DNA from: Bacteroidetes bacterium UBA6183
GTDB lineage: Bacteria > Bacteroidota > Bacteroidia > UKL13-3
Direction of reading: 5' to 3'
DNA length: 64,000 bases
Assembly (NCBI GenBank): GCA_002422865.1
Contig: DITN01000087.1
Location: forward strand, 25,084 to 89,083
Made by a program: the position numbers and the translations under genes. The notes under the pieces are model-generated. The model saw only the letters and a list, made by a program, of their open reading frames with translations. It searched no databases and was not told where the DNA came from. Of the stretch, positions 7,761 through 30,359 are shown piece by piece. Position 1 is the first letter of the stretch; every line of letters starts with the position of its first letter.

Positions 7761-9848
7761 ATGTTAACTGAATACCCGTGGTGGTTAGGTATAATTGGCG
7801 CTTTGCTTGCATTTGTTGCAACTTGGTTTTTATACCGCAATAATCCTATTGGCGTTGAAGGAAAAAGAGCTAAACAACTTTTGTGGTTACTACATGCACT
7901 TAGGTTTTCGGTTTTATTTGTTTTGATGATATTGTTGTTGGGACCTTTAGTAAAATTAATTACTACCCAAACCCAAAAACCTGTTGTAATTTTTGCGGTT
8001 GACAATTCGCAATCTGTTACATTGGGCAATGATAGTACACAACTTAAACAGGCATTAAACAAACAGTTTGAACTTTTACAAAATGAGTTGGGCAATGATT
8101 ATGATGTGGTTCCTTACTTAGTAGGTAAAGAAAGCAAACAAGCATCTTCGCTTGATTTTAAAGATAAAGAAACCAACCTCAATCAACTTTTCATCACACT
8201 AAAAAACACTTACGATGGTGCTAATTTAGGTGCCGTTGTTTTGGCAAGTGATGGTTTATACAACAAAGGAGAAAGCCCTTTGCAAACGGCCAGCGAACTT
8301 AAAGCACCTATATTTACCATTGGTTTGGGCGATACGGTACAACGCAAAGACGTACTGATAAAAAATGTCCGCACCAATCAATTGGTTTTTAAGGGCAACA
8401 GTTTCCCGTTACAAATTGATGTGGCCGCCTTTGCAGCTGCAGGACAATCAACCCAAATTACAGTTACACAAAATGGTAAACCAACCTACAAGCAACAACT
8501 TGTATTAAGCAATAATTATTTCAATACCCTATCAACCAACCTAACGGCAAACGAGTTCGGCACACAACATTTAATTATTGAAGCAAGTACTGTTACCAAT
8601 GAAGTAAGTGTGGTAAACAACCGCATGGATGTGTTTATTAATGTAATTGATGGTAAACAAAAAATTGCACTCTTGGCTTACACGCCTCATCCGGATATTG
8701 CTGCAATTGAAAAAACATTAAGCCAACAAGAAAATTACAGCACCAATACTTTTATTGTTTCGCAGCAACAAACACCAAATAATTTAGAACAGTACAGTTT
8801 AATAATTGCTCACCAACTTCCCGGTTTAAACGGAGAAGGAGCTGTGTTACTAAAACAGTTAAAAGATAAAAACATTCCTATTTTATATGTGCTAGGAGCT
8901 CAAACCAATACTGGCTATTTAAACCAACTAGAACCTACTTTACAAGTTGGTGGAGCACGTGTGGGCAACATGAATGAAGTTACGCCTATTTATAACAATA
9001 ACTTCAGTTTATTTACTTTAAGCAACGAAGAACAAGAGCACATTAAAAAGTTCCCACCGGTAATGTCGCCTTTTGGCAACTATAAAATTAATGGTGAAGT
9101 GGAGGTGTTGTTTAAGCAACAAATCGGGTACGTAAAAACTGAATATCCGTTGGCATTTTTTGCTAAAGGAAGCAACAATAAAAGTGGTTTCTTTTGTGCC
9201 GAAGGCTTCTGGAAATGGCGCATGTACGACTTTGGTATCAGTCAACAAAAAACCACATCAACCATTTTGGGCGGTATGGTGCAATACCTAACCAGCAAAA
9301 AAGACCAAAGCAGGTTTAGGGTAAACACCAAAAAAGAAATTGACGAAAACGAGTCGGTGGTGTTTGATGCCGAGTTATACAACGAGAGTTACCAATTAAT
9401 TAATACACCGGAAGTAAATATGTTGGTAACAAACAGTAGGGGTAAAAACTATACTTTTACGTTTAACAAAACGGGCAACGCTTACACACTTGATGCCGGT
9501 TTATTACCGGCCGGAACATACAGCTACGAGGCTGCTACAACCGTTGGCACGCAAACCCAAAAAGCAAAAGGACAATTTATTGTAAAACCATTGCAGGTTG
9601 AGTTCGCTCAAACCACCGCAAACCATCAATTGTTAAACGAATTGGCCACACAACAAGGTGGTGCAATGTATCACCTGAACAATATGGGTAAAATGGCTGA
9701 TACCATTAAAAAGAACGAAAGCATAAAGCCCATTATTTATCAAAACCAAGATATAAAAAGCTGGATTGACTTAAAATGGATTTTTGTTTTGTTCATGTTG
9801 ATGTTAACCACAGAGTGGTTTGTGAGGAAATGGAATGGGAGTATATAA
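7761..9848 (+). CDS. vWA-domain membrane protein (BatA-like N-terminal double-TM, MIDAS 'DNSQS', C-terminal TM)
   Basis: N-terminal two transmembrane segments 'WWLGIIGALLAFVATWFLY'. The MIDAS motif is in 'VVIFAVDNSQSVTL'. A C-terminal hydrophobic segment 'WIFVLFMLMLTTEWFVRKW' is present. Confidence 0.75.
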   Translation: MLTEYPWWLGIIGALLAFVATWFLYRNNPIGVEGKRAKQLLWLLHALRFSVLFVLMILLLGPLVKLITTQTQKPVVIFAVDNSQSVTLGNDSTQLKQALNKQFELLQNELGNDYDVVPYLVGKESKQASSLDFKDKETNLNQLFITLKNTYDGANLGAVVLASDGLYNKGESPLQTASELKAPIFTIGLGDTVQRKDVLIKNVRTNQLVFKGNSFPLQIDVAAFAAAGQSTQITVTQNGKPTYKQQLVLSNNYFNTLSTNLTANEFGTQHLIIEASTVTNEVSVVNNRMDVFINVIDGKQKIALLAYTPHPDIAAIEKTLSQQENYSTNTFIVSQQQTPNNLEQYSLIIAHQLPGLNGEGAVLLKQLKDKNIPILYVLGAQTNTGYLNQLEPTLQVGGARVGNMNEVTPIYNNNFSLFTLSNEEQEHIKKFPPVMSPFGNYKINGEVEVLFKQQIGYVKTEYPLAFFAKGSNNKSGFFCAEGFWKWRMYDFGISQQKTTSTILGGMVQYLTSKKDQSRFRVNTKKEIDENESVVFDAELYNESYQLINTPEVNMLVTNSRGKNYTFTFNKTGNAYTLDAGLLPAGTYSYEAATTVGTQTQKAKGQFIVKPLQVEFAQTTANHQLLNELATQQGGAMYHLNNMGKMADTIKKNESIKPIIYQNQDIKSWIDLKWIFVLFMLMLTTEWFVRKWNGSI

Positions 9849-9872
9849 AAACCATCACGGTGGTTTTATTTT
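9848..9872 (+). terminator. intrinsic terminator
   Basis: Stem AAAACCA/TGGTTTT, loop TCACGG, followed by ATTTT. Confidence 0.6.
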
Positions 9873-10420
9873 ACTGACTTCACCAATAAACACTAAATCT
9901 GTTGGGTATCACAAAAGTTTAACTTTATCTCTTTTCGTTTAAGAAAGTCTTAACTCATAGATGTTAAGTTAAATCAACCATACATGATTCATAGCAAATT
10001 CATTAAACATTCAACGAGTTTGAATGATAGAAAATGTTTGAATGACTCTGCACGGCACATGAGATTTTTGCGTAACAAGTAAGTGCAGTTGTATTTACGT
10101 TGGGCTTAGTAAGCAATTCCCGGAGCTTCGTTCGGGATGTGCCACCGGAAATGAAGCGCAGCGAAATGGCTTGGATTGCGCGGAATACAACAAGCGTAAC
10201 TTGTAGCAAAAAAATCATAAGCCTTGAATTTTTTGGATACTTTTTGTTTCAAGACAACTGCGCAGCAATCAATGAGGCAAAAAAACAATAAATAACAACG
10301 AGTTAAAAAGTATCGCGGGTTTGGGGTGCAACCACAAGAAACCAAGTAGAAACACATAGTGCTAAATTAGCATCACGCTTACTCAAGTCATTGTATTTAT
10401 AAAAATATAACCCTTACTTT

Positions 10421-10828
10421 GTGTTGATATTGAAAGCAGCTAAATACATATTACTTTTTGTACTTACTACAAGTATTACCCTACCCGATGCAATTATGCA
10501 CCAGGTTTTAAGGTTACCTGCATTGGCTGCACATTACTATCATCATTTAACTGAGCACGAATCTATTGGTGTGATTGCATTTATAGAATTGCATTACGGT
10601 AATACCGAACACATGCAAACCGATGCGCATGAGCACGAAAATTTACCGGGCACACAAAAACAACAGCACTGCCAACATGCACAAGTTATTCCTGTTGCAG
10701 TAACTGCTTTTGGCATAGATATTCAACACCCCGAGTTTAATGCTAAAGCTGAGCTTTTTGCTGTTATTAATGAACATGTGCCAAGCAACAATGCCGCATC
10801 AATATGGCAACCACCTAAACTTGCTTAA
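10421..10828 (+). CDS. His-rich small secreted/membrane-anchored protein upstream of the heavy-metal RND pump. The start is uncertain (TTG/GTG).
   Basis: N-terminal hydrophobic segment, then 'HYYHHLTEHE...HYGNTEHMQTDAHEHENLPGTQKQQHCQHAQ' with at least 14 His. Lies directly upstream of czcA. Confidence 0.55.
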   Translation: MLILKAAKYILLFVLTTSITLPDAIMHQVLRLPALAAHYYHHLTEHESIGVIAFIELHYGNTEHMQTDAHEHENLPGTQKQQHCQHAQVIPVAVTAFGIDIQHPEFNAKAELFAVINEHVPSNNAASIWQPPKLA

Positions 10829-10844
10829 TTAGGTCTTATTTCTT

Positions 10845-10875
10845 CGCGACAATCCTCGCGCATTATTTTCTTATT
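10845..10875 (+). terminator. GC hairpin plus T-rich tract between the His-rich gene and czcA (attenuator or terminator candidate)
   Basis: Stem CGCGA/TCGCG with loop CAATCC, followed by CATTATTTTCTTATT. Confidence 0.35.
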
Positions 10876-10901
10876 CAAATTATTTTATTCATAGTAAAAC
10901 T

Positions 10902-13900
10902 ATGTTAGAAGCCATTATCCGGTTTAGTGTTCGGAATAAATTTATTGTAGGCTTATTTACGCTTACATTAGTTATTTGGGGTATTTACTCATTGAGTAAA
11001 TTACCTATTGATGCAGTACCCGACATCACCAACAATCAAGTACAAATATTAACAGTAGCACCAAGCAGTGGTGCTGAAGACATTGAACGTTTCGTAACGT
11101 TTCCGGTTGAACAAACCATGGCTACCATTCCCGGTATACATGAAATACGTTCCTTCTCCAGATTTGGTTTGTCGGTTGTAACCATTGTGTTTGATGATGA
11201 CGTTGATGTGTATTGGGCACGCCAACAGGTAAACGAACGCCTTGGCATGGCCAAAGAACAAATTCCTACAGGAATGGGCAGTCCGGAACTTGCACCACTT
11301 ACAACAGGTTTAGGAGAGATCTTTCAGTATGTTATTCATACCAAACCCGGCTACGAAAAAAAATACGATGCCATGCAATTGCGCACCATACAAGATTGGA
11401 TTGTACGCAGGCAATTATTAGGCACAAAAGGTGTAGCAGATGTAAGTAGTTTTGGTGGCAAACTCAAACAATATGAAATAGCCATTCAAACAGAAAAACT
11501 GAGGAGCTTAAATATTAGTATTAACGAGGTTTACCAAGCACTTCAAACCAATAACCAAAATACCGGTGGCGCTTACATCGATAAAAAACCTAATGCCTAT
11601 TTTATACGTACCGAAGGTTTAATTACTAGCAAGGAAGACATTGAAAACATTGTAGTAAAAAACACCTCAAACGGTATTCCTATTTTAATAAAAAATATTG
11701 GCGAAGTAAAATTAGGATCGGCTATTCGATATGGTGCGATGACGCGCAACAATCAGGGTGAAGTGGTTGGTGCAGTGGTAATGATGCTGAAAGGAGAAAA
11801 CTCCTCTCAGGTTATTAAAAACGTAAAAGAGCGTATTGCACAAATAGAAAAAACCTTACCGGAAGGTGTTGTTATTGAACCCTTTTTAGACAGAACCAAA
11901 TTGGTAAACAATGCCATTGGTACAGTAAGTAAAAACCTATTAGAAGGCGCGCTGATTGTAATTTTTGTTTTGGTGTTGATGCTTGGTAATTTCAGGGCAG
12001 GGTTGGTTGTGGCATCTGTAATTCCATTGGCCATGTTGTTTGCCGTGTCTATGATGAATTTATTTGGTGTATCGGGTAACTTAATGAGTTTGGGTGCAAT
12101 TGATTTTGGTTTGATTGTAGACGGGGCTGTAATTATTGTTGAATCAACTTTACATTATTTAGGGCTTAGAAAAAGAACAACAACACTTACCCAACAACAC
12201 ATGAATAGTGAGGTTGAACACTCCGCGTCAAAAATTATGAAGAGTGCCATCTTTGGGCAAATAATCATTTTAATAGTTTACATCCCAATTTTGGCATTGG
12301 TTGGCATTGAAGGTAAAATGTTTAGACCCATGGCGCAAACCGTAAGTTTTGCCATTATTGGTGCGGCAATTTTATCGCTTACTTATGTTCCTATGATGAG
12401 TGCTTTGGTGTTGAGTAAAAAAGTAAGTCATGTGCCAACTTTCTCCGATAAAATGATTGCCAAACTTCAGGTAATATACCATGATGTTTTCGTTTGGGTA
12501 ATTCGTAAACAAGCCGTAGTGTTAAGTACAATCGTAATAATTTTTGTAGGCAGTATTGCTTTATTTATGACCTTAGGTGGTGAGTTTATTCCGCAATTAG
12601 ATGAAGGTGATTTTGCGGTTGAAACCCGCATTATGACAGGAAGTAGTTTGAGTGAAACGGTAGATGCCGCACAAAAATCTGCGCGAGTGTTGCTAGATAA
12701 TTTCCCTGAAGTAAAAGAAGTAGTTGGTAAAATTGGTTCATCAGAAATTCCAACAGACCCCATGCCTGTAGAGGCTTGTGATTTGATGGTAATTTTAAAA
12801 GAAAAGGATGAGTGGACTTCAGCCGAAACTCGAGAAGAGTTGGCTGAAAAGATGCAACATAAACTGGAAGAAAATATGGTTGGTGTGAGTTATGGTTTTC
12901 AGCAGCCCATACAAATGCGTTTTAACGAGTTAATGACCGGAGCAAGACAAGATGTGGTGGTGAAAATTTATGGTGAAGACTTGAATCAACTTGCACACTA
13001 CGCAAAACTTGTTGGTGCCATTGCACAAAAAACCGAAGGTGCTTCTGATGTGTATGTTGAACAAGTTGGCGGTTTACCTCAGGTAGTAGTGAATTATTAC
13101 CGCGATAAAATTGCCTTGTTTGGATTGAATATTAGTGATGTAAACATGGCCATACGTGCAGGTTTTGCAGGAGAAAGCGCAGGTTTGGTATTTGAAAACG
13201 AAAAACGTTTTGACATGGTGGTTAGGCTTGATGCCAGTAATAGAACCGATATTGAAGATGTAAGAAATTTATTTGTTACCACACCAAAAGGAGATCAAAT
13301 TCCGATTAGGCAATTGGCTGATGTGCAACTAAAAGTTGGACCAAATCAAATACAACGCGATGATGCCAAGCGCAGAATTGTAGTGGGCTTTAATGTACGC
13401 AACAGCGATATTCAAACTGTAGTTGATAATCTTAAAAAATCGATTGATAAAGAAATTAAGTTTGAGCCCGGTTACTACACCACTTATGGTGGTGCATTTA
13501 AAAACCTGGAAGATGCCCGTAACCGCTTAGCGGTAGCCGTTCCTATCGCCTTGTTATTAATTTTTATGTTGTTGTTTTTCACCTTCCACTCGTTTAAACA
13601 AGCGGCATTAATATTTACTGCTATACCTTTAAGTACCATTGGTGGTATTGTAGCATTATGGATGCGCGATATGCCATTTAGTATATCGGCAGGTATTGGT
13701 TTTATTGCCTTGTTTGGTGTAGCGGTATTAAATGGTATTGTGTTAATTGGCGAGTTTAATCACCTTAAATTAAACGAAACCAAAAATCCATTGGAGATTA
13801 TTATTCGTGGTGCATCAAGCAGGTTACGCCCTGTGCTTATGACAGCATTAGTTGCTTCATTAGGATTTTTACCCATGGCACTATCGCACGGTAGCGGTGC

Positions 13901-15266
13901 TGAGGTGCAAAAACCATTGGCAACAGTAGTAATTGGAGGATTGGTATCGGCCACGTTTTTAACCTTATTTATTTTACCGGTATTGTATTTATTGTTTGAA
14001 AAAAGAGCCTACTTAAAAAGCAAAAAAGTAACATTGGTGTTACCGTTAATATTTTTATTGGGGTTGAATGCTATTGCACAAACAAACCAAAACTTAAGCA
14101 TGCAAGAGGCAGTACAACAAGCCTTGAGTAATAATGCGGGTATAGCAGCTAATCAAACCAACATTAACTACCAAAAGGTAATTAAACGTACCGCAACCGA
14201 ATTGCCTAAAACAGATTTTACATACATGCAGGGGCAATACAACAGCTTTTATAAAAACGATAATAACCTTACCGTTACACAAAGCATTCCGTTTCCTACC
14301 TTGTTTGTTGCGCAACAAAAATTAGGCAACAACCTAATAAAGGCTGGAGAATTGCAACTACAGCATGTAAAAAACAATTTGGCATTAGAGGTAAAACAAA
14401 CCTACACACAGCTGCAGTATTTGTATGCGCAACAAACTCTGTTACAAAAAACCGATAGCATTTATCGAAACTTTGCACGTGCTGCTTTATTAAGGTATGA
14501 TGCAGGGGAAGCAACTTTGCTCGAAAAATCTACTGCGCAAATGCATTTAATGGAGGCACAAAATCAGCTTAACCAAAACAAGTTGGAGGTTGATGCTACC
14601 TTGTTTCAATTGATGGCATTATTAAATTCAAGTAACACCATTACATTAAAAGAAAACGAACTACAACCGGTGTTACCACAACTCAATATTGATTCAACCC
14701 AAATAAAAAACAACGCGATGTTGGCTTACATGCAACAGCAAATAAATATAGCCCAACAACAAAAAAATGTAGAGTTAAATAAAACCTTACCCGATTTAAA
14801 GGTGGGTTATTTTAACCAAACACTTATTGGTTCGGTAAACTATGCCGATGCAAGTATTGCCGGTTCCGGCACACGTTTTCAAGGATTTTTATTGGGTGTA
14901 AATATTCCGCTTTGGTATTTCCCAAATGCATCCAAGATAAGGGCGGCTAACTTACAATCGCGCATTTCACAGCAGTATTACCAACAGTACGAAATTAGTT
15001 TAAACAACGAACACAAAACAGCAATTGCTGAATACAAACGTGCCAAAAACAATTTAGATTATTACATCAACAGTGCTTTACCAAATGCAGAGCTGGTGCT
15101 TAATCAGGCACAAAAATCATACAAGCAAGGCGATATTAGTTACACCGAATATTTAAATGCCATACGCAACGCAACTTTAATTAAACAAGATTATTGGCTT
15201 GCCGTTAAAAACCATAACAACTCCATATTTAAACTCCAGTTTTTGGCCGGAATTAATGAAAAATAA
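10902..15266 (+). CDS. czcA: heavy-metal-efflux RND permease (CzcA/CusA family) fused in-frame to a TolC-like outer-membrane factor (CzcC-like)
   Basis: 1454 aa. The N-terminal roughly 1040 aa is classic CzcA, 'AVPDITNNQVQILT...' with 12 transmembrane segments. After 'LFEKRA' comes an internal signal-peptide-like 'KKVTLVLPLIFLLGLNAIAQ'. It is followed by about 400 aa of TolC/OMF-like repeats ('LSMQEAVQQALSNN', coiled-coil, beta-barrel). Confidence 0.85.
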   Translation: MLEAIIRFSVRNKFIVGLFTLTLVIWGIYSLSKLPIDAVPDITNNQVQILTVAPSSGAEDIERFVTFPVEQTMATIPGIHEIRSFSRFGLSVVTIVFDDDVDVYWARQQVNERLGMAKEQIPTGMGSPELAPLTTGLGEIFQYVIHTKPGYEKKYDAMQLRTIQDWIVRRQLLGTKGVADVSSFGGKLKQYEIAIQTEKLRSLNISINEVYQALQTNNQNTGGAYIDKKPNAYFIRTEGLITSKEDIENIVVKNTSNGIPILIKNIGEVKLGSAIRYGAMTRNNQGEVVGAVVMMLKGENSSQVIKNVKERIAQIEKTLPEGVVIEPFLDRTKLVNNAIGTVSKNLLEGALIVIFVLVLMLGNFRAGLVVASVIPLAMLFAVSMMNLFGVSGNLMSLGAIDFGLIVDGAVIIVESTLHYLGLRKRTTTLTQQHMNSEVEHSASKIMKSAIFGQIIILIVYIPILALVGIEGKMFRPMAQTVSFAIIGAAILSLTYVPMMSALVLSKKVSHVPTFSDKMIAKLQVIYHDVFVWVIRKQAVVLSTIVIIFVGSIALFMTLGGEFIPQLDEGDFAVETRIMTGSSLSETVDAAQKSARVLLDNFPEVKEVVGKIGSSEIPTDPMPVEACDLMVILKEKDEWTSAETREELAEKMQHKLEENMVGVSYGFQQPIQMRFNELMTGARQDVVVKIYGEDLNQLAHYAKLVGAIAQKTEGASDVYVEQVGGLPQVVVNYYRDKIALFGLNISDVNMAIRAGFAGESAGLVFENEKRFDMVVRLDASNRTDIEDVRNLFVTTPKGDQIPIRQLADVQLKVGPNQIQRDDAKRRIVVGFNVRNSDIQTVVDNLKKSIDKEIKFEPGYYTTYGGAFKNLEDARNRLAVAVPIALLLIFMLLFFTFHSFKQAALIFTAIPLSTIGGIVALWMRDMPFSISAGIGFIALFGVAVLNGIVLIGEFNHLKLNETKNPLEIIIRGASSRLRPVLMTALVASLGFLPMALSHGSGAEVQKPLATVVIGGLVSATFLTLFILPVLYLLFEKRAYLKSKKVTLVLPLIFLLGLNAIAQTNQNLSMQEAVQQALSNNAGIAANQTNINYQKVIKRTATELPKTDFTYMQGQYNSFYKNDNNLTVTQSIPFPTLFVAQQKLGNNLIKAGELQLQHVKNNLALEVKQTYTQLQYLYAQQTLLQKTDSIYRNFARAALLRYDAGEATLLEKSTAQMHLMEAQNQLNQNKLEVDATLFQLMALLNSSNTITLKENELQPVLPQLNIDSTQIKNNAMLAYMQQQINIAQQQKNVELNKTLPDLKVGYFNQTLIGSVNYADASIAGSGTRFQGFLLGVNIPLWYFPNASKIRAANLQSRISQQYYQQYEISLNNEHKTAIAEYKRAKNNLDYYINSALPNAELVLNQAQKSYKQGDISYTEYLNAIRNATLIKQDYWLAVKNHNNSIFKLQFLAGINEK

Positions 15267-15270
15267 CATC

Positions 15271-16428
15271 ATGAAAAATTTAAAATATAAGATCATACTT
15301 ATAGCCGCAACTGTTTTATTGGGCGTGGCTTGTGGTAATAAAAATCAACCCGAAGTTGCCGAGATAACTACTGATAGCACCTCAAAAGAAATCATTGTTT
15401 TATCATCAACCCAGTTTAACAATGCGGGAATTGTTCTAGCAAAACCTATTAGCCAAAACATCAACCAAAAAATAAAAGCAAATGGTAAACTAGATGTGCC
15501 ACCACAAAATTTGGTAAGTGTATCTGCGCCTTACGGTGGTTTCCTAAAAAGCACAACCTTGTTACAAGGTATGCATGTGCATAAAGGCGAGGTAATTGCA
15601 CAAATGGAACACCCTGATTACATTCAGTTACAGCAAGATTATTTAGAGAATAAAAGCACACTTACTTATTTAAAAAACGAACTCGATAGGCAACAAGAAT
15701 TGGCTAAAGAAGAAGTAAACAGCAAAAAAACATTACAAAAAGCCAAAACAGATTTTGAGGTAATGCAAGCCCGCGTTAATGGTTTGCGCGCCAAATTAGA
15801 GTTAATAAATATTGACGTAGTTAAACTAGAGAAAGGTACCATGCAAAAAGTGGTTGCATTAACATCGCCCATCAACGGTTATGTAACCAAGGTAAATGTA
15901 AACATTGGTGCGTTTGTAACAGCCAATACCGTTCTGTTTGAAATTGTAGATACCGAACATTTACATGCAGAAATTAGTGTGTTTGAAAAAGACATACACC
16001 ACATAAAAATTGGTCAGAAAGTAGCATTTACTTTGGCCAATGAAAACCAAGAACGTTTTGCTAAGGTACATTTAATTGGCAGGGAGATTAGTGACGACCG
16101 AACTGTTCGTGTGCATTGTCATTTAAACCAAGAAGACAAAGACCTGTTACCGGGTATGTATTTAACGGCTTATATTGATGTAAAAGCCAGTACTAACAAT
16201 ACTTTACCCAGCAATGCCTTTGTTGATTTTGAGGGTAAATCGTATGTGTTTTTGTTGAGTAAAAAACTAAACGACAGTTATACTTTTGCCCGTATTGAGG
16301 TAGAGAAACTTGGCGAAGAAAATGGATTTACAGCCTTTACATCAACCCAGGAATTAAACAATAAAGACATTGTTACCGAAGGGGCATATAAGTTGCTTTC
16401 GGCTATGCAAGGTGGCGAGGAAGAATAG
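15271..16428 (+). CDS. efflux RND periplasmic adaptor (membrane fusion protein, CzcB-like) lipoprotein. An alternative start at 15256 overlaps the czcA stop.
   Basis: 'MKNLKYKIILIAATVLLGVAC' carries a lipobox. Biotinyl/lipoyl-like and beta-barrel membrane-fusion-protein segments are present. The ORF-track extension to 15199 runs into czcA and is unlikely. Confidence 0.85.
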   Translation: MKNLKYKIILIAATVLLGVACGNKNQPEVAEITTDSTSKEIIVLSSTQFNNAGIVLAKPISQNINQKIKANGKLDVPPQNLVSVSAPYGGFLKSTTLLQGMHVHKGEVIAQMEHPDYIQLQQDYLENKSTLTYLKNELDRQQELAKEEVNSKKTLQKAKTDFEVMQARVNGLRAKLELINIDVVKLEKGTMQKVVALTSPINGYVTKVNVNIGAFVTANTVLFEIVDTEHLHAEISVFEKDIHHIKIGQKVAFTLANENQERFAKVHLIGREISDDRTVRVHCHLNQEDKDLLPGMYLTAYIDVKASTNNTLPSNAFVDFEGKSYVFLLSKKLNDSYTFARIEVEKLGEENGFTAFTSTQELNNKDIVTEGAYKLLSAMQGGEEE

Positions 16429-16449
16429 ATAAATAAAAAAGACCGCGCG

Positions 16450-18156
16450 TTAACTTCTAAACAAAATGTCTTTGATGTTGAGTTGGAGGTTAACGTGCCC
16501 GTTAAAATGGTTTTCTTCTACAGTGTAACAAATATCAAACGATATACCTTGAGATACTTTGTCGTAATGCTCGCCTAAACCAAATGCAATGGCCTTAAAA
16601 ATACGTCCGCCATCTTCTTGGGTGATGCTCATTTTTAAGTGATTGTTTCCAACGATCATTACATCGCCAACTTCCCAAACATTTTTGCTCATAAACACCG
16701 GGTTTTGATTGCCCGGACCAAATGGTGAAAACTGCTTTAGCACATTAAAAAACTTTGGAGATATGGAACGAAGCGGAATTTCAGCATCGTACTCAATCTC
16801 TGGGGTTAAGCTGCGCTCTTCAATGTTTGATGAAACAATGCGTTCAAACTTTTCGGCAAATGGTTTTACGTTTTCAAGTTTTAACGTTAAGCCGGCTGCG
16901 TGTGTATGACCACCATATTGTTCCAATAAATCACTGCACTCTTCGATGGCGCTGTATAAATCAAAACCTTCGACCGAACGCGCACTACCTGTGGCAAGTC
17001 CGTTGCTTTCGGTTAAAATGATGGTTGGGCGATAAAATTTTTCTATTAAACGTGAAGCCACAATACCAATAACACCTTTGTGCCATGCGTTGTTAAACAA
17101 TACCGTTGATTTGCGGTCGGCAAATTTTTCGTCATGTTTAATCATTTCAAAAGCCTGCAAGGTAATATCGCTATCAAATAGCCTTCGTTCGGTATTGTGC
17201 TGATTAACCAATTCTGCAATTTCTTTTGCAGTGGCATAATCGTTTGATGTCATCAATCGAACCGAATCTTTTGCATCAGCAATACGCCCTGCTGCATTAA
17301 TACGCGGACCAATAAAAAACACCACATCACTCACACTGTATTCCGGTTTAACAGCGTATGTATCTAATAAAGCACTTAAGCCTTTATTAGGGTTTGATTT
17401 TAATTTACGCAAACCATGGTGCACCAATATGCGATTTTCGTCTAAAATAGGAACTAAATCGGCCGAAATACTGATGGCCACTAAATCTATGTATTGTTCA
17501 ACCTCAGTAAAGGGAATATTGTGTTTAACCGCGTATGCTTGTATCAATTTAAAACCAATACCACAGCCCGAAAGTTCTTTAAACGGATACGGGCAATTTG
17601 ATTGTTTTGGGTTTAATATAGCTACCGCATCAGGAATAACATCACCGGGTAAATGGTGATCACAAATAATAAAATCAACGCCTTTTTGTTTGGCATAAGC
17701 CACGCGTTCTACCGATTTTATACCACAATCTAATGCAATAATTAATGAGAAGTTATTTTCTGAGGCCCAATCGATACCTTTTACTGAAATTCCATAACCT
17801 TCAATGTATCTGTCCGGAATATAGAAATCTACATGGGGATAACGCGCCATTAAAAAAGCGTAAACAATAGCAACAGAAGTTGTTCCGTCTACATCATAAT
17901 CGCCATAAATCAAAATTTTCTCGTTGGCGGCTATGGCTTGTTCAATCCTGGTAATGGCTTTATCCATACCAAGCATAATAAATGGGTCGTGTAAATCTGC
18001 GTATTGTGGGCGGAAAAACTTTTTAGCAGCCTCAAAAGTAACTATACCCCTTTGGGCCAAAACACCTGAAAGCGTTTTGTTTACGTTGATAGCCGATGAA
18101 AGGTTTTCAACGATATCTTTTGAGGGTTCTTCTTTTGGTAGCCAGCGTTTAGTCAT
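16450..18156 (-). CDS. recJ: single-stranded-DNA-specific exonuclease RecJ
   Basis: DHH motifs 'YGDYDVDGTTS' and 'DCGIKS...DFIICDHH'. A DHHA1 C-terminal domain is present. 568 aa. Confidence 0.92.
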   Translation of the reverse strand: MTKRWLPKEEPSKDIVENLSSAINVNKTLSGVLAQRGIVTFEAAKKFFRPQYADLHDPFIMLGMDKAITRIEQAIAANEKILIYGDYDVDGTTSVAIVYAFLMARYPHVDFYIPDRYIEGYGISVKGIDWASENNFSLIIALDCGIKSVERVAYAKQKGVDFIICDHHLPGDVIPDAVAILNPKQSNCPYPFKELSGCGIGFKLIQAYAVKHNIPFTEVEQYIDLVAISISADLVPILDENRILVHHGLRKLKSNPNKGLSALLDTYAVKPEYSVSDVVFFIGPRINAAGRIADAKDSVRLMTSNDYATAKEIAELVNQHNTERRLFDSDITLQAFEMIKHDEKFADRKSTVLFNNAWHKGVIGIVASRLIEKFYRPTIILTESNGLATGSARSVEGFDLYSAIEECSDLLEQYGGHTHAAGLTLKLENVKPFAEKFERIVSSNIEERSLTPEIEYDAEIPLRSISPKFFNVLKQFSPFGPGNQNPVFMSKNVWEVGDVMIVGNNHLKMSITQEDGGRIFKAIAFGLGEHYDKVSQGISFDICYTVEENHFNGHVNLQLNIKDILFRS

Positions 18157-18212: not shown

Positions 18213-19325
18213 CTACTCAACCCAATCGGCTATAAACACGTTGGTATCGCGGGTTCCACCATTGTTTCTGTTTGATGAGAACACTAGTTTTTTCCCGTCA
18301 GGTGAGAACATTGGGAAGGCATTAAACTTGCTTTCAAAAGTAATTTGCTCCAAACCTGTTCCATCTATATTAATCATAAACAACTGAAAGTCGTAACCTT
18401 TATCGCTATGGTGATTTGATGAAAAGATAATTTTATTTCCGCTTGGGTGATAAAAAGGCGCCCAATTGGCTTTGCCTAATTTTGTTACTTGTTGCAAATT
18501 GCTGCCATCTATATTCATGGTAAAAATCTCCATGTTAGTGGGTGCTACCAATCCTTTTGCTAATAAATTTTTATAATCAATGGTGTCTGCGCCTTGCGGA
18601 CGACTAGCTCTAAACACAATTTTACTTCCATCGGGCGAGAAAAATGCACCGCCATCGTAACCTAAAGTGTTGGTCAAACGTTTAACGTTTTTGCCATTAA
18701 TGTCCATGATGTATAAGTCCAAATCACCATCACGGGTTGACGTAAATAAAATTTTATCTCCTTTGGGTGATACAACCGCTTCAGCATCATAGCCGGGTAC
18801 TTCCGTTAGCTGCTTTAATACTTTTCCTTTTTCATCACCAATAAAAATATCATAGTTAGGGTCTATTGACCACAGGTAGCGACCGCTGGTTTCTGGGGCA
18901 GGCGGACATTCGGCACCGGCCTTAAAAGTAGATGCATAAATAACACGTTTATTATCGGGCATGTAGTAGCTACAAGTTGTTCGGCCTTGTAAGTTACTTA
19001 CATTTAAAGGTTGATAGATACGGTTATCTGCAGCTTCCTCAATGTCCATCCAAAAAATTTGGTCACACTTTAAACCCCAAGCCGGGTTGTTACTTTGAAA
19101 CGATAATTTTTTTCCATCAAAACTAAAGTATGCTTCTGCGTTATCGCCACCAAAGGTAAGTTGGCGCAAATTTGAAAAATGTTTTTCTTGAGTTGACACC
19201 TCAACAACCTCGTCCTCTTCAGGATGACTTTGGTTAGGCTCAGGTGGTAAAATACCTGCTATATCTTGGGCGTATAAACAAGGTGCAAAGGCTAAGGCTG
19301 CAAATAAAGTTTTCAGCGTTTTCAT
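18213..19325 (-). CDS. TolB-like periplasmic beta-propeller (PD40/WD40-like repeats) protein
   Basis: Signal peptide 'MKTLKTLFAALAFAPCLYAQ'. Repeated 'FSPDGKKLVFSS' and 'SPKGDKILFTSTRDGDLDLY' PD40 motifs. Confidence 0.8.
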   Translation of the reverse strand: MKTLKTLFAALAFAPCLYAQDIAGILPPEPNQSHPEEDEVVEVSTQEKHFSNLRQLTFGGDNAEAYFSFDGKKLSFQSNNPAWGLKCDQIFWMDIEEAADNRIYQPLNVSNLQGRTTCSYYMPDNKRVIYASTFKAGAECPPAPETSGRYLWSIDPNYDIFIGDEKGKVLKQLTEVPGYDAEAVVSPKGDKILFTSTRDGDLDLYIMDINGKNVKRLTNTLGYDGGAFFSPDGSKIVFRASRPQGADTIDYKNLLAKGLVAPTNMEIFTMNIDGSNLQQVTKLGKANWAPFYHPSGNKIIFSSNHHSDKGYDFQLFMINIDGTGLEQITFESKFNAFPMFSPDGKKLVFSSNRNNGGTRDTNVFIADWVE

Positions 19326-19386
19326 GCCTTGCAAGTAAATACACATTAATAAAACGTTATCCCCAAACCACTTTTAAATGTGAACA

Positions 19387-23179: not shown

Positions 23180-26100
23180 TTATTCTCTGATTAAAGTTAC
23201 TGTTCCATTAACAGTTTTCTTCTCACCATTCAATAATTCGTATTTAAATACGAAGAAATAAGTCCCTTCAGGGCAATCACTTCCATCATTCATGTTCGTA
23301 CCATTCCAATCGTATGAGGCATTGGTACTTTCAAATACCTTGGTACCCCAACGGTTGTATATTACTAAGTCGTATTCTTTTTCTCCTTTAATTTTAATAT
23401 CGAAGAAATCGTTAGTTCCATCCTTAGGACTTGGTGTAAACACATTATAAATTTCTAACTCAATAATGAATCGGTAAGAAATCGTTTGACAAACACTGTC
23501 CATACAAACAGGTTTGGCAGGATCGGGGGTAAACGCTTGCAAGCATATTACAACATCACCGGTATCTGTACCAAAGTCAAAACTCCAATCCCTATCAGAC
23601 TCCACTTTATCAACCTGACCAATAATATTACCATTCTTCGATGCGGTCCAAGTGTATTCACTTGATGAAACTGAGGTATTTCTGAATCCAAACTTTGGTG
23701 AATTTGCAGCAGAATCGATGTTAAAACTTGCAAAAGGACGAACCACACGAACGGAAGCTGTATCAAACAACTTACAATTAGGCAATCCAGGTGCTATTTT
23801 AGTAGGGAAAAGCCTTACGCTGTAGTTACCGGTATCTTGGAATGTATAGGTAAACTTGTTATCTAAATTCGTTTTTATGATTGAATCGATGAGTAAGTCG
23901 CCATCATCATTAATCATTTCGTATTTAAACTCTGTGTAGCTAATTGTATCAGATTCATTTGTAACAGTAAATGGCTGATCAACACAAACTACTTGTTTAT
24001 CTATACTAATTTGAGCAGGATAAGATTTTTTGACTGTAATACGAATAGGAGCATTAATTCCATCTACCGTATCAGGATAATTAACAATCCTACATCCAAT
24101 ATTATCCGATTGAGGGTTGTTATCATCACTTCTAGCGAATATGTAGTAAGTACCTGAATCATTGTAAGTAAATGTTAACGTATCGTACTGATTCAAACTG
24201 ACAGAAGACTGCTGGTTAGCGTCACCCCAAAGAATATCAGTACGTTTTGTTGGCTTATCGTTTGGACCGGTTGCACCGGCTACGTCAGCCAAGTTTACAA
24301 CTTTTACAGTAAATGGTGCGCAACCAACGGTATCTGTTATTACTTGGAAACCAGGGCGAGGTCCGAGTATATTCAAATTAACAAAAGCAGTATCCTTACA
24401 TCCTTGTGCTGTTTCAACAACTAACTTAATTCTGAATGCACCATTACCACGATAGTTCCAAACAGGAGTATCAATGTACTGTGCATCAAAACGTAAGGTG
24501 TCTGTTTTGCGCTCGCCAAAGAACCAGTAGTTTCTGTTTACCAAATCTCCTGATCCAGCATTAGGCTCAAAACGAATACTATCAAACTTGTTATAAGTGT
24601 ATCCAGGGATAGGTGTCATGGTAGAACGATCGTAGAAAGTAACAGGAGCTCCACAATTGTATATACCAGGCTTAATAACAGGAATTGCATTTGGTTCAGT
24701 AACCAATACACGGCAATAAGCAGTGTCCCAACAACCGTTTTTATCACGACTTAACATTGTTACGGTGTATTCTCCAGCTTGTTTATATTGGTGAACCGGG
24801 TTAGTCCATGATGCAGAATCTCCATCACCAAAGTAGTACTTAACCTTTTCAATAAAGTCGCCACAAGGATAAAACTCATTGATATCTACAGCGCCATTTC
24901 TCCAATAATTAACTGTGTCATAATGGTAACTGCTATGTGGATCATTATAAGCAGCGCCTATAGTAACCTTACATGTTGTAAGGTCTTTACTTGGTAAACC
25001 ATTAGGATTAAAAATTGGATGCGATAATGAGCAATCAGGACGGTAGTAACGAATTGAATCATAAAAATGAACAGGTTCATTTTTACAGAAAACCTCATCG
25101 AAATTTCCTTTTGCATCACGTGTCATTACAGAATCAATTACGCCTCGTACCAAAAGTTTGTTGTCAGTGTATTCTGCCTTACAATCCTTTGTGCTCATTA
25201 ATTTATGACTTACAGGACGCGGTGCAGAACCCGAACGTTTACAATCATCTTCATATGAACTTGACCAATATCTGTGTTTAACAGGTAATAACATTTTAGC
25301 TTGATCCATTTCTTCAGTTCTGTAAAATGTCTTAGTAGTATCAACGTCAGCAATGGTGAATCTTTTTCCACACTCTTCCCAAATTGTGGAATCATTTGTG
25401 GTAACTCGTCCGATATAATACAATGAACCGTTAGGATTAGCACTTGCATCGTATATACGCATGGTATAATTATCAATGTAGCGGAAGGTAACATTTGCAC
25501 CTGGTATACCATTAGGGAAAGGAATACTATCTATCAAATCGCCTATGTTTTTTTCGCCACAAACACCAAAGTAGTAGTTGTAACGAACCCTGCGGAAACC
25601 ATTCACAAAATAACCATCTGTTAATCCAGGTTTAGGGCTGTAGTAGAAACTATCAACTGTAATAGAATTGTCGCCCCAGCTAATGGTGCTGCTATGAATG
25701 TATGATTGAACACTGTCTAAATAAACAAAGTTAATTAAAGCATTTTTACAGTAGTATTTACATTCACCATTCACAGGTACGTTTGTTATAGGGTCATAAA
25801 CAGGATCAACATAAAAACGTCCATCCATATCTGTTATGTTTAACAAATTATGATACCAAACCGTATCAGAAATACAAGGCATGTTTGGATCTCCTGTACC
25901 AATAATTAAACCCACCGTAATATCACCTGTTGGGTTAGCAGGAGGAAATAGCGTGATACCACTTTGTGTTACCTGAAGTGGATTCACGTTAGAGCCATAG
26001 TGATACCAAAAATTAGTTCCACCTGGTGCATTCCACCTGTTTGGTGGCATAAAATATTGGTTGTAATCAGGTTGTAAAGAAAATGGAGGATATGTTAAAC

Positions 26101-28681
26101 CACCAGCAGTTGATGACAAAACACCACCAGCTTGAGGTGCAGGACCGGTTGCTCCTGTATAGTTAATAAATCCATCAAGGGCGCAAGGGGTAGCATCTCT
26201 TCTGTCTGCCATCGAATCTAAGTTCATGCGAATCCAAGCTGCACCGCAATCTGGGCTAATACCAGGGTATTGACCTAAAGTATTATCAACTGCCCCTAAC
26301 ATAAATTGAATACCTGCTTGATCGTTTTGAATATAACTACCAGGACATTCTTTACCTCTAATTCCTAAACCGGTAGCATCAGGGCGCATTAATTTCAATT
26401 GAACTTGATCATCGTCTTTACAATCTAATGAATCGAGTTTAATAAAATCATCTGCAACAATGTATGTTTTATTACCTACGTTATTCATTGAGTCTTGTAC
26501 AAACTGCTCAACGTTATAACATCTTTGAACAGCCTTATCAAACAAATAACGATAAAGTGTTCTTGAAGGATCAACCATTGTTTCATAGTTGTGTCGCATA
26601 AATTCGCCTTGCAAAGTTGTGTACTTCGCCTCCATGGTATCATTTAATGGGTCAACAACAAATCCCTTAGGGAAAAACCCGTATCCACCACGTTTAGTAT
26701 TACCCCAGAAACCGGCAACCGGATCTGGTGCACCGTTTTGTAATGTAAATCTATTAAACGGTCTTAAATCTTGCTGATTAGGTTGACCATTTTCATCAAA
26801 AGAATCTACTGTGTCTATCCTTGGCCATAAACCATAAGGCGCAGGACCAGAGCCTTGCGTTAAACTCCAAACCCCAGTTTGTGGATTAAGATAGACCGGC
26901 TTGCCCCACCATTGCGTATCTGCGGGATGCACAAGCGTTTTTCTTGGATTAGCAGTAGGAAGTGTATCGGCAGGATTAGTTGAATATTGTTGCGGATTCC
27001 ATGGCATAAAATCATGACCATAACGATACCACCTGTATATCACATCCCAACCCGTGTATCGGTGAACAGGCAAGGTATCTGCAGAATAACGGCAATCTAA
27101 ACGTCTTCCTTCAAATACTTTACCATCTTGGCGCCAATAGCCATCACTAAAATTGTATTGATCTTGAGCAGTAGCCCAGCCTCCTGGAGGTGGATACCCT
27201 GGCTTAGGTACAAGGTAAGAAGTACACTGAGGAGCCGCATCATCACCAAAATCCCAACGCCTGAAAACGTGCTCTGATTTATAACGTTGCTCTGTGTTAA
27301 CAAAGTTAATTACGTTGTAATAACCAGAAGCATTAGGGTTACATTGGTTTTGTTCTGTTGGGTTAAGCGTAATTTGGTTTTGTGGGTCTTCTATCCTCGC
27401 ACGCGGACCTAATACCTCCACAACTATCGTGGTATCTTTTCTACAGCTTGGGTTAGGCTGTAATGGCCAAACCAATAAATTTACGTTATATGCTCCAAGA
27501 CCACGCATAAAGGTATGTGGCGGATTCCAAGAGCTGTTGTTAAAATTGTCTTGCTGTGACGGTGGATCTCCGAAATTCCATAATAATTCTCCATTACCTG
27601 GGTTAATTTCAGGGTTTGGTGTTTGCACAAAGGTTAGTGTTTTTAAACCCTCTCTATCGTAACAAACTGAATCGCGTCTTAGTCTTAATGAAGTATCAGG
27701 AAGATTTAAGTATGGTGTAGGATCTAATTCTACGATAATATTTTTCGGCTTATTTGCTGACATCGCAGATGTCATTACATAACTATCTATACAACCTGTG
27801 GTGTCTTCTATGGTTAACGCTGGATAAAATGTACCATTTTTGCAATAATTGTGTGTAATAAGGTAATATTCGTTTTCATCTTGGGGCAAGCTCCATGGAC
27901 GACTACGTGTTACTGATTGACCATCTCCAAAATCCCATGTATAGCTATTTACTTGACTAAATGGAACCTGAGCTGTAGTATTTTGTAATGAATACGGTGT
28001 ACAGAAGCAACCCGCATTACCTAATACTGCAAATGAAGGAGCAAGATTTGGCTTTATGGTTAACAATCCATTATAGGTTACAGCATTTCTGCACCCTACA
28101 CTGTCTACTACTCTTACTGTAATATTAAATTGTCCATTTGCATTAAACGAGTGCGAATATGTTTGTCCAGTTACAGGAAAAGGAAACACATCAATGTTAC
28201 CATCACCCCAAATAACCTCAGTACGATAAATGCGGTTGTCTGTTTTAACAGAGGTGTTGGTTAGCGTAACCAGGTTACCTCTGAAACATTGCACAGCTTG
28301 TCCGTTTACAGTCGCCCCCGGAATAGGTAAACGATAAACAATAGCAGAAGTGGTTTGTGCAACTTTGGCACCGTTGCTTAAGTTAACTTCCACCTTAATA
28401 ATGTAGTTACCTGGAGCAGGATAAAGATACTGTGTACTGTAGTTTGGACCACTATTAGGAATAGTAGTTTCCACCGTTCCATCATTATTGTAATCGAACG
28501 TGCAGTTAGTAGCAGTAACACCTGCAGGAAGACCTGTAAGTGCCGCATCAATACTAAGCTGATCGCCCAAACAAATGGTTGGTGAGGACAGTGTTAGAGC
28601 CAACGACTGCGCATAAGCAGACCTAAAGCCCAACAACGACAGCAAAAGCAACAAATAGACTTTTAGTACTTGTTTTTTCAT
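23180..28681 (-). CDS. giant T9SS type-B (gliding-motility-associated C-terminal domain) surface protein with multiple PKD-like domains. The ORF extends to 28771, but the signal-peptide Met is at 28681.
   Basis: Signal peptide 'MKKQVLKVYLLLLLSLLGFRSAYAQ'. Many 'WxFGDG' PKD motifs. The C-terminal 'NVFTPSPKDGTNDFFDIK...YNRWGTKVFES...GTYFFVFKY...GTVTLIRE' is a type-B sorting domain. Confidence 0.9.
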   Translation of the reverse strand: MKKQVLKVYLLLLLSLLGFRSAYAQSLALTLSSPTICLGDQLSIDAALTGLPAGVTATNCTFDYNNDGTVETTIPNSGPNYSTQYLYPAPGNYIIKVEVNLSNGAKVAQTTSAIVYRLPIPGATVNGQAVQCFRGNLVTLTNTSVKTDNRIYRTEVIWGDGNIDVFPFPVTGQTYSHSFNANGQFNITVRVVDSVGCRNAVTYNGLLTIKPNLAPSFAVLGNAGCFCTPYSLQNTTAQVPFSQVNSYTWDFGDGQSVTRSRPWSLPQDENEYYLITHNYCKNGTFYPALTIEDTTGCIDSYVMTSAMSANKPKNIIVELDPTPYLNLPDTSLRLRRDSVCYDREGLKTLTFVQTPNPEINPGNGELLWNFGDPPSQQDNFNNSSWNPPHTFMRGLGAYNVNLLVWPLQPNPSCRKDTTIVVEVLGPRARIEDPQNQITLNPTEQNQCNPNASGYYNVINFVNTEQRYKSEHVFRRWDFGDDAAPQCTSYLVPKPGYPPPGGWATAQDQYNFSDGYWRQDGKVFEGRRLDCRYSADTLPVHRYTGWDVIYRWYRYGHDFMPWNPQQYSTNPADTLPTANPRKTLVHPADTQWWGKPVYLNPQTGVWSLTQGSGPAPYGLWPRIDTVDSFDENGQPNQQDLRPFNRFTLQNGAPDPVAGFWGNTKRGGYGFFPKGFVVDPLNDTMEAKYTTLQGEFMRHNYETMVDPSRTLYRYLFDKAVQRCYNVEQFVQDSMNNVGNKTYIVADDFIKLDSLDCKDDDQVQLKLMRPDATGLGIRGKECPGSYIQNDQAGIQFMLGAVDNTLGQYPGISPDCGAAWIRMNLDSMADRRDATPCALDGFINYTGATGPAPQAGGVLSSTAGGLTYPPFSLQPDYNQYFMPPNRWNAPGGTNFWYHYGSNVNPLQVTQSGITLFPPANPTGDITVGLIIGTGDPNMPCISDTVWYHNLLNITDMDGRFYVDPVYDPITNVPVNGECKYYCKNALINFVYLDSVQSYIHSSTISWGDNSITVDSFYYSPKPGLTDGYFVNGFRRVRYNYYFGVCGEKNIGDLIDSIPFPNGIPGANVTFRYIDNYTMRIYDASANPNGSLYYIGRVTTNDSTIWEECGKRFTIADVDTTKTFYRTEEMDQAKMLLPVKHRYWSSSYEDDCKRSGSAPRPVSHKLMSTKDCKAEYTDNKLLVRGVIDSVMTRDAKGNFDEVFCKNEPVHFYDSIRYYRPDCSLSHPIFNPNGLPSKDLTTCKVTIGAAYNDPHSSYHYDTVNYWRNGAVDINEFYPCGDFIEKVKYYFGDGDSASWTNPVHQYKQAGEYTVTMLSRDKNGCWDTAYCRVLVTEPNAIPVIKPGIYNCGAPVTFYDRSTMTPIPGYTYNKFDSIRFEPNAGSGDLVNRNYWFFGERKTDTLRFDAQYIDTPVWNYRGNGAFRIKLVVETAQGCKDTAFVNLNILGPRPGFQVITDTVGCAPFTVKVVNLADVAGATGPNDKPTKRTDILWGDANQQSSVSLNQYDTLTFTYNDSGTYYIFARSDDNNPQSDNIGCRIVNYPDTVDGINAPIRITVKKSYPAQISIDKQVVCVDQPFTVTNESDTISYTEFKYEMINDDGDLLIDSIIKTNLDNKFTYTFQDTGNYSVRLFPTKIAPGLPNCKLFDTASVRVVRPFASFNIDSAANSPKFGFRNTSVSSSEYTWTASKNGNIIGQVDKVESDRDWSFDFGTDTGDVVICLQAFTPDPAKPVCMDSVCQTISYRFIIELEIYNVFTPSPKDGTNDFFDIKIKGEKEYDLVIYNRWGTKVFESTNASYDWNGTNMNDGSDCPEGTYFFVFKYELLNGEKKTVNGTVTLIRE

Positions 28682-28796
28682 TGTACTTGTTTGATGTTTT
28701 GTTAGCCGCAACAAACCAACATCAGCTGGCTTATTGGGTTTGATTTTTAATTGATAATAATACGCTAACATATATATTTAAATTTAGAATTTCAAA

Positions 28797-29712: not shown

Positions 29713-30354
29713 TTAACTTTTCTTTTTCATTTTTTCAAGCGCCTCTTGCAGCTGCACCCTAGCCCTGCTTAACTGCGATTTTGAAGTTCCCTCGCTTATG
29801 CCCAACATTTCACCAATTTCAGCATGACCATAACCTTCTACAATAAAAAGGTTTAACACAGCACGATAGCCAGGTGGTAAGTTGTTCATGGCCAATAATA
29901 TTTCTTTTTGGCTCATGCGCTCCACCGTAAAATCGTTGTGCGCTTGGTTATAAGCAGCATCCACATCGCTATGGTACATGTGCATTTTGTTAACTCTGTA
30001 AAACTCTAATGCTGTGTTTACAAAAATGCGTTTCATCCAACCTTCAAAAGAACCTGCGAAGCTAAATTGCTCCATTTTGGTAAAAACTTTAACAAACCCG
30101 TCTTGCAAAATATCTTTCGCTTCATCAGCATTGCTGCTATAACGCAAGCACACTCCATACATGGTTTTCGAATAGGTTTCGTAAAGCGTTTTTTGCGCTA
30201 ACCTATTGCCTTTCAAACATTCCTGTATAAGTTCATGCTCGTTTTGTTTGTTCACGTTTCTACCGGTTACTTTTTCAGATGAATAATAGCTGCCCGAGGT
30301 TGCAAGGGCATGATTAAAAGTTAAAAAATTCTTTATGCAACGCAAATAATGCAT
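29713..30354 (-). CDS. RNA polymerase ECF-type sigma-70 factor. The start is uncertain; a GTG at 30255 would give about 180 aa.
   Basis: Region 2 'ELIQECLKGNRLAQKTLYETYSKTMYGVCLRYSSNADEAKDILQDGFVKVF'. Region 4 'EGYGHAEIGEMLGISEGTSKSQLSRAR'. Confidence 0.9.
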   Translation of the reverse strand: MHYLRCIKNFLTFNHALATSGSYYSSEKVTGRNVNKQNEHELIQECLKGNRLAQKTLYETYSKTMYGVCLRYSSNADEAKDILQDGFVKVFTKMEQFSFAGSFEGWMKRIFVNTALEFYRVNKMHMYHSDVDAAYNQAHNDFTVERMSQKEILLAMNNLPPGYRAVLNLFIVEGYGHAEIGEMLGISEGTSKSQLSRARVQLQEALEKMKKKS

Positions 30355-30359
30355 TATTT
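30344..30359. promoter_or_regulatory. perfect 16-bp palindrome AAATAATGCATTATTT in the divergent sigma/adhesin control region
   Basis: Read directly from the sequence. It creates an apparent ATG-CAT-TAT 'MHY' start on both strands. Confidence 0.4.

Follow-up and report, generated by a model that had tools for sequence, protein, structure and literature searches.

We describe a 64,000-nucleotide (nt) stretch of DNA from Bacteroidetes bacterium UBA6183 (assembly GCA_002422865.1, contig DITN01000087.1, positions 25,084 to 89,083 of the forward strand), referred to here as the window, in which a CzcA-type heavy-metal efflux pump of the resistance-nodulation-division (RND) family and a TolC-family outer-membrane factor (OMF) are encoded by a single uninterrupted gene. 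Our analysis suggests that the 1454-amino-acid (aa) product is a polyprotein precursor, which would be cut after Ala1059, at the end of an internal signal peptide, to yield a 13-helix CzcA and a free OMF. We put the probability of this reading at about 75%, taken as a whole and including the origin of the fusion by loss of the stop codon between adjacent pump (A) and OMF (C) genes, which is the best explanation for how it arose. The locus is best explained as a three- or four-gene heavy-metal efflux operon that consists of a small DUF6660-like gene, the fused czcA::OMF gene, and a gene for a periplasmic adaptor.

A CzcA-type pump and an outer-membrane factor in one reading frame

The fused gene (10902..15266, + strand) extends from an ATG at position 10902 to a stop codon at 15264-15266 as one open reading frame (ORF) of 1454 codons, with the internal signal peptide included. 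Pfam assigns ACR_tran to residues 5-1032 of the product (E = 7.5e-279) and two OEP repeats to the region that ends at residue 1450 (E = 1.1e-33). The protein is therefore laid out as an RND transporter, a signal-peptide-like segment (residues 1034-1059), and a TolC-family OMF (residues 1060-1454). Across the junction, it reads ...LFEKRAYLKSKK-VTLVLPLIFLLGLNAIA/QTNQNLSMQEAVQQALSNN, where the slash marks the predicted cut (here and below), and a longer stretch of the same region reads ...LYLLFEKRAYLKSKK-VTLVLPLIFLLGLNAIA-QTNQNLSMQEAVQQALSNN. The approximately 415 stop-free codons beyond the RND part are far above chance expectation for DNA of ~38% G+C, and both G+C content and skew are continuous across the junction. 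A preliminary description of this DNA had proposed that a complete CzcA pump, a signal-peptide-like segment, and a complete TolC-family OMF are joined in frame, and each of these elements is borne out by the domain assignments above and by the family, alignment, and model comparisons below.

The first part of the gene (10902..14000, + strand; residues 1-1033) encodes a heavy-metal efflux RND (HME-RND) transporter. NCBIfam model TIGR00914 (CusA/CzcA) matches residues 1-1041 with 1188.6 bits, compared to a cutoff of 701.45. The RND part aligns end to end with ZneA (structure 4k0e; residues 1-1038 to 1-1021 in a single stretch, E = 9e-213), which is its best match among solved structures, and with CusA (residues 1-1032 in one stretch, E = 9e-181). 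By homology to these structures, it contains 12 transmembrane (TM) helices and two large periplasmic loops. TM4 carries a motif of the HME type, DFG..DGA..VE (DFGLIVDGAVIIVE), and the proton-relay pattern DFG-x3-DGA-x3-VEN (CzcA D402/D408/E415) is represented in the window by AIDFGLIVDGAVIIVES. The D, D, and E of this motif are at least 90% conserved among 50 homologues, and its last N is an S in the window. The residues aligned with the CusA Met triad (M573/M623/M672) are E, A, and E, and CusA-type specificity for Cu/Ag was rejected on the absence of the triad. The third of these positions, a Glu in the window, aligns with ZneA D658. Because Glu, Ala, and Glu replace the CusA triad and ZneA is the best structural match, the pump probably transports a divalent cation of the Zn/Co/Cd type and not Cu(I) or Ag(I).

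The C-terminal part corresponds to a mature TolC-family OMF domain (14079..15263, + strand; residues Q1060-K1454, 395 aa) with two OEP repeats (PF02321), which are matched in two stretches with 117.1 bits against a gathering score of 22. An AlphaFold2 (AF2) model of these 395 residues, built with a 51-sequence alignment, has a pLDDT of 89.8 and contains four barrel strands (residues 44-51, 62-70, 239-248, and 266-275) and two pairs of long helices (including residues 73-141 and 281-349). In the model, the barrel is approached by a helix run of 31 residues, and the tunnel is made up of helices of ~69 residues. A Foldseek search with the model matched TolC, CmeC, SilC, CusC, OprM, and OprN over the full length (E of ~1e-15; TM-score, 0.70 to 0.78). 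No Cys follows the signal segment in the window sequence; thus, the OMF is predicted to be a non-lipoprotein.

The fused architecture is shared by most close relatives in sequence databases. Among the 120 best protein clusters, at least 118 have this architecture, with lengths of 1418-1487 aa and 61-91% identity to the query over 98-100% coverage; both Pfam domains are on record for 117 of them, and cluster P0091 has ACR_tran only. The fused clusters represent Flavobacterium, Pedobacter, Arcticibacter, Fluviicola, and Sphingobacteriaceae, and they include proteins encoded on closed chromosomes or on contigs of 4.5-6.3 Mb. For the nearest relative (P0001, 91% identical), the 90% cluster comprises 79 members drawn from JGI, ENA, Logan, and NCBI, and among the members listed, all that are full length have 1454 aa. 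Four independent metagenome-assembled genomes (MAGs; loci L008-L011) also keep the fused frame, with RND parts that are 93-97% identical.

One genome per GTDB species was scanned with a 6-sequence OMF alignment, which yielded more than 517 related OMF loci, and locus classes were read on the DNA for the best 80 of these. Forty-five of these 80 species-level loci are fused, 26 have adjacent, separate czcA and OMF genes, 7 have a spacer of ~650 nt, and 2 are ended by the contig. Isolates with the fused gene include Flavobacterium collinsii CECT7796, F. terrisoli PT-3, F. noncentrifugens CGMCC 1.10076, Arcticibacter eurypsychrophilus MJ9-5, and Pedobacter sp. PF22-3. The preliminary description had suggested a search for the same fusion in related genomes and had noted that homologues that are always separate genes would imply an assembly error; the fusion is readily found, and the counts of fused loci and clusters contradict the idea that the two are always separate. 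Because independent assemblies agree on the frame, a missed stop codon or frameshift is very unlikely, and we are nearly certain that the fusion is genuine.

Some of the sequences recovered carry doubtful labels. One contig labeled Candidatus Saccharibacteria (L043, 2836-5925) contains a Bacteroidota-type operon with a frame-broken RND part, and it is probably a misbinned contig and/or a pseudogene. The names of several MAGs labeled Chitinophaga, Bacteroides, or Sphingobacterium also look loose.

The internal signal peptide and its predicted cleavage

Sites for signal peptidase I are marked by small residues at positions -3 and -1. The internal signal peptide, which is also the 13th hydrophobic segment of the protein (14001..14078, + strand; residues K1034-A1059), is composed of an n-region (KRAYLKSKK), an h-region (VTLVLPLIFLLGL), and a c-region (NAIA), followed by Q. 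Conservation and sequence rules place the predicted signal peptidase I cut between A1059 (14076-14078) and Q1060 (14079-14081). The segment thus has a positively charged n-region, a hydrophobic h-region, small residues at -3 and -1, and Gln at +1; it starts at residue 1034, past TM12, and not at the N terminus of the protein, where signal peptidase I substrates have their signals.

Junction statistics were taken from the query aligned with 120 homologues; nowhere else in the protein is conservation as low as at the junction. Even so, every sequence has a net n-region charge of +1 to +5, and Kyte-Doolittle values average 2.8 in the hydrophobic core. Around the predicted cut, a helix breaker (P, N, or G) occupies position -5 in 100 of 120 sequences, and position -3 is S, G, A, T, or V in 106 of 120. 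Position -1 is Ala in 91, Ser in 26, and Gly or Thr in 1 each, and Gln is found at +1 in 119 of 120, while positions +2 to +5 are variable again. Because positions -5, -3, -1, and +1 are kept while the rest of the junction varies, the cleavage site is, as judged from this alignment, under selection. Gln at +1 corresponds to the Bacteroidetes Q-rule for signal peptidase I substrates, whose N termini are subsequently converted to pyroglutamate by glutaminyl cyclase (PMC5837995, PMC10653852). Elsewhere in the window, a gene on the opposite strand (18213..19346, - strand) encodes a secreted beta-propeller/TolB-like product with an N-terminal signal peptide ending ...APCLYA/QD, which is an in-window example of the Q-rule.

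The same segment occurs as an ordinary signal in relatives that encode pump and OMF separately (split relatives). The free-standing OMF signal peptides match the internal segment position for position, as in MKLLWILLMAVSLSTSIHA/QQTFTLQQAV (...IHA/Q) and ...VCHLNAGA/QRLSLEQAV, and the same mature N terminus is expected after the cut. Fused and split signal segments have similar statistics, with an uncharged stretch before the site of ~17-20 residues in fused proteins versus ~16 in split ones. Given this length in the fused proteins, the argument that the h-region is too short for a TM helix was dropped as a main point.

We propose that the precursor would be processed as follows. The RND part would be inserted co-translationally with its 12 TM helices, and the C terminus of TM12 would lie in the cytoplasm, as suggested by homology to ZneA and CusA. 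The Lys/Arg-rich tail and the hydrophobic segment would then act together as an internal start-transfer signal in an N-in/C-out orientation, and the OMF part would be threaded through SecYEG into the periplasm. Signal peptidase I would then cut between A1059 and Q1060, as the conserved site suggests, which would leave CzcA with a 13th helix and release a free OMF with an N-terminal Gln, probably cyclized to pyroglutamate as in other exported Bacteroidetes proteins. Finally, the OMF would trimerize in the outer membrane and dock onto the CzcA trimer via six separately translated adaptors (3:6:3), the usual arrangement of tripartite RND pumps.

Several considerations weigh against this reading. 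The uncharged stretch is long enough to serve as a membrane anchor if cleavage failed, and requirements other than cleavage, such as the folding of the OMF N terminus, could partly explain why the Gln and the small residues are conserved. Internal initiation could account for part of the OMF, as many junctions keep an ATG and the window has in-frame TTG and GTG codons after an A-rich stretch. Furthermore, the metal specificity proposed above is deduced from homology.

The possibility of internal initiation can be extended to a distinct account, in which the OMF would be made mainly from the old start with its own signal peptide and the read-through fusion would be a tolerated by-product. We consider this unlikely. 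A Met is present at the start of the signal segment in 24 of 40 fused junctions (e.g., KFNKKTMKIN.. in Flavobacterium), and the Lys codons give an A-rich stretch upstream, as is often seen at Bacteroidetes starts. However, the window's clade and many others have no junction ATG, and the window has only TTG/GTG inside the h-region. Also, without a stop codon, every ribosome that translates czcA must also make the OMF part. Because no stop separates the two halves, an abundant fusion product would still need processing, and the conserved cleavage site could handle the products of both routes.

It is considerably less probable that the fusion stays uncleaved. The preliminary description had favored such a single inner-to-outer-membrane polypeptide, in which the segment merely serves as a 13th TM helix and one chain runs from the inner into the outer membrane. 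The continuous and conserved frame fits this idea, as do an uncharged stretch that could span the bilayer and upstream positive charges that favor an N-in/C-out orientation; if true, the tripartite pump would have an architecture unlike any solved. However, the residues at -3, -1, and +1 are kept in the 120 homologues as they are in cleaved signals while their neighbors vary, and a pure anchor needs none of this. In free-standing orthologues, moreover, this segment serves as an ordinary signal peptide. The AF2 model also speaks against a tether: the first strand of the mature OMF starts at residue 4, ~3 residues past the cut site, so the N terminus would lie high on the periplasmic tunnel without a linker to the inner membrane. 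This first structured element is located at the foot of the 31-residue helix run, well above the tip of the 69-residue tunnel helices. In solved AcrAB-TolC and MexAB-OprM pumps, the tunnel tip itself touches only the adaptor hairpins, far above the inner membrane, and in solved TolC and AcrAB-TolC structures, the OMF N-terminal region is likewise far from the inner membrane. A milder form, in which an uncleaved fraction would act as an assembly intermediate that places the channel over its own pump, falls under the same low estimate. Lastly, we rejected a sequencing or assembly error that removed a stop codon or shifted the frame, or a decaying gene, as extremely improbable: the split A-C arrangements in relatives and the broken RND part of L043 would fit such an artifact, but the same 1454-aa frame recurs in a 79-member cluster from independent projects, is kept in the four MAGs, in closed chromosomes, and in isolates, and both halves are under clear purifying selection.

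Gene order, natural variants, and neighboring genes

The gene downstream of czcA::OMF (15271..16428, + strand) encodes a membrane-fusion (periplasmic adaptor) protein (TIGR01730, 134.2 bits against 94.9; HlyD_D23, E = 1e-31). An alternative ATG at 15256 overlaps the stop codon of the fused gene, and the N terminus of the adaptor (MKNLKYKIILIAATVLLGVAC) resembles a lipoprotein signal. In all related loci whose sequence reaches that far, the adaptor gene comes after the OMF, and the order is A-C-B in all 78 assessable related loci, fused or split. The preliminary description had presented the order A(C)-B as a departure from czcCBA; the order itself stands and is unusual compared to czcCBA of Cupriavidus, but it is the norm in this Bacteroidota clade. 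Thus, instead of OMF, adaptor, and RND as three separate genes, the window has RND::OMF and then the adaptor.

Whether an OMF is free-standing was verified on the DNA, as protein length can mislead (at least one short 50%-identity representative, P0125, is a fragment of a fused protein). The closest free-standing OMFs among the 50%-identity representatives are 33-44% identical to the OMF domain, and their contigs carry, in this order, czcA (1041 or 1046 aa), OMF (411 or 415 aa), and adaptor genes. At locus L007, the ATG of the OMF gene overlaps the stop codon of czcA. The Met at fused junctions, which is absent from the window's clade, is a relic of the OMF start codon. The RND and OMF parts gave congruent rough neighbor-joining trees, which contain one large, all-fused clade with Flavobacteriales, Sphingobacteriales, and the window's group, and a Cytophagales-type clade in which fused and split forms are interleaved. 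Because of this interleaving, several independent fusion or fission events are likely, although the trees are too rough for counting them.

Other natural variants involve the loss or exchange of the domain that follows the pump. At L001 (685-3924; GCA_035909595.1), where the RND part is 83% identical, the whole OMF domain has been lost; the 1079-aa CzcA keeps a hydrophobic remnant and ~20 further residues, and the adaptor gene begins 4 nt later. At L071 (2107-5946) and also at L031, L050, L078, L081, and L085, an internal signal (MKTIRLILLPALISVGVAAQAQ/E..) joins CzcA to an unrelated domain of ~200 aa. These loci, from some members of Cyclobacteriaceae and Fulvivirgaceae, encode the OMF separately. 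A close relative of L071 has the same signal peptide joined straight to the OMF (L055, 5800-6120). Because L001 has lost the OMF and L071 has an unrelated domain in its place, the parts are modular.

Upstream of the fused gene is a small His-rich ORF of 135 aa that starts from a GTG (10421..10828, + strand) and has an N-terminal hydrophobic segment and a C-terminal IWQPPKLA. It has no Pfam or NCBIfam match, and DUF6660 (PF20365) gives no hit even at an E value of 10; its resemblance to true DUF6660 genes is limited to position, size, a hydrophobic segment at the N terminus, and the IWQPPK motif at the C terminus. Of 79 related loci, fused or split, 77 have a small ORF of this kind (~100-140 aa, with an N-terminal hydrophobic segment and ending IWQPP[KRQ]) immediately before czcA, including L001 (216-614), L007 (2435-2806), L002 (4572-4889), and L004 (4576-4902). 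These ORFs occur in two forms, one Cys-rich (Pfam DUF6660, C.PFC.C.CC) and one His-rich without a Pfam hit, as in the window. The small ORF is probably a fourth component of the operon related to DUF6660, and it is possibly a metal-binding or regulatory component. A literature search found no paper on DUF6660. A scan of positions 9800-16700 for promoters and terminators gave counts at or below the shuffled expectation; with these counts, and because it models sigma-70 only, it was uninformative for Bacteroidota.

The genomic surroundings of the operon differ between genomes. The fused operons of Fluviicola (L003) and F. terrisoli (L004) adjoin further genes of metal homeostasis (L003, 10698-12776; L004, 10601-14171), which encode a P-type ATPase, a CDF transporter, and MgtC. 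The operon in the window sits among housekeeping-like genes, with a gene for a 695-aa membrane protein upstream and, downstream on the opposite strand, a 568-aa gene that is RecJ-like as read from its sequence alone. The window also contains two very long ORFs, of 1863 aa (23180-28771, - strand) and 1538 aa (30349-34965, + strand).

Significance and comparison with known systems

Tripartite efflux pumps are normally assembled from three separately made proteins, and there is continuing debate over how the cell pairs an inner-membrane pump with an outer-membrane channel and keeps the two in balance. With the fusion, pump and channel would necessarily be synthesized in a 1:1 ratio, and the close split relatives provide built-in controls for the clade with one chain. 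This system makes it testable whether signal peptidase I cuts an internal signal that follows a 12-helix transporter and whether co-synthesis aids the pairing of channel and pump. The conserved Cys- or His-rich upstream gene is a candidate for a metal-handling partner. Databases name the fused proteins simply "CusA/CzcA family," and their architecture is only implicit in domain tables. Thousands of such "CusA/CzcA" entries hide an OMF, and OMF counts and operon completeness in Bacteroidota are biased as a consequence. Our search of the available literature, Flavobacterium proteomics and look-ups in two reviews (PMC8277102, PMC4446572) included, found no description of a natural RND-OMF fusion or of a CzcA-CzcC fusion in Bacteroidetes, which is not proof of absence. 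The fusion is widespread and apparently uncharacterized.

The locus resembles CzcCBA, ZneCAB, and CusCBA of Cupriavidus metallidurans and Escherichia coli in that it encodes an HME-RND pump with the TM4 motif DFG..DGA..VE, a TolC-family OMF, and an adaptor. It differs from these systems in that pump and OMF share one frame and the order is A-C-B rather than C-B-A. In addition, the OMF is a predicted non-lipoprotein, the CusA Met triad is absent, and the gene in front is small and DUF6660-like, not czcN/czcI or cusF. The signal segment has the n-h-c layout, the small residues at -3 and -1, and the Gln at +1 of Bacteroidetes Q-rule substrates of Sec and signal peptidase I (PMC5837995); unlike theirs, however, it is internal and follows 12 TM helices.

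The split operons of Cytophagales (Ohtaekwangia, Chryseolinea, Parachryseolinea, and Cyclobacteriaceae) are orthologous to the locus in the window, with 62-72% identity in the RND part and 39-45% in the OMF. They have the same gene order, the small upstream gene, and an OMF signal that ends in Ala or Ser before the Gln and is followed by L[ST]L.QA. They differ from the fused operons in having a stop codon, and usually a frame change, between A and C, and an OMF with its own start.

As a mechanistic precedent, the closest is the FbcH cytochrome b/c1 polyprotein of Bradyrhizobium japonicum, which was reportedly shown by Thony-Meyer et al. to be cut at an internal signal peptide into two mature proteins. 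Both polyproteins combine a polytopic inner-membrane protein with an exported protein joined in frame through an internal signal peptide. The proteins themselves are unrelated, and both products of FbcH are said to stay at the inner membrane, whereas the OMF encoded in the window must reach the outer membrane. Cleavage of FbcH is reported to have been demonstrated, whereas cleavage of the CzcA-OMF precursor after Ala1059 is predicted from the conserved site at its junction.

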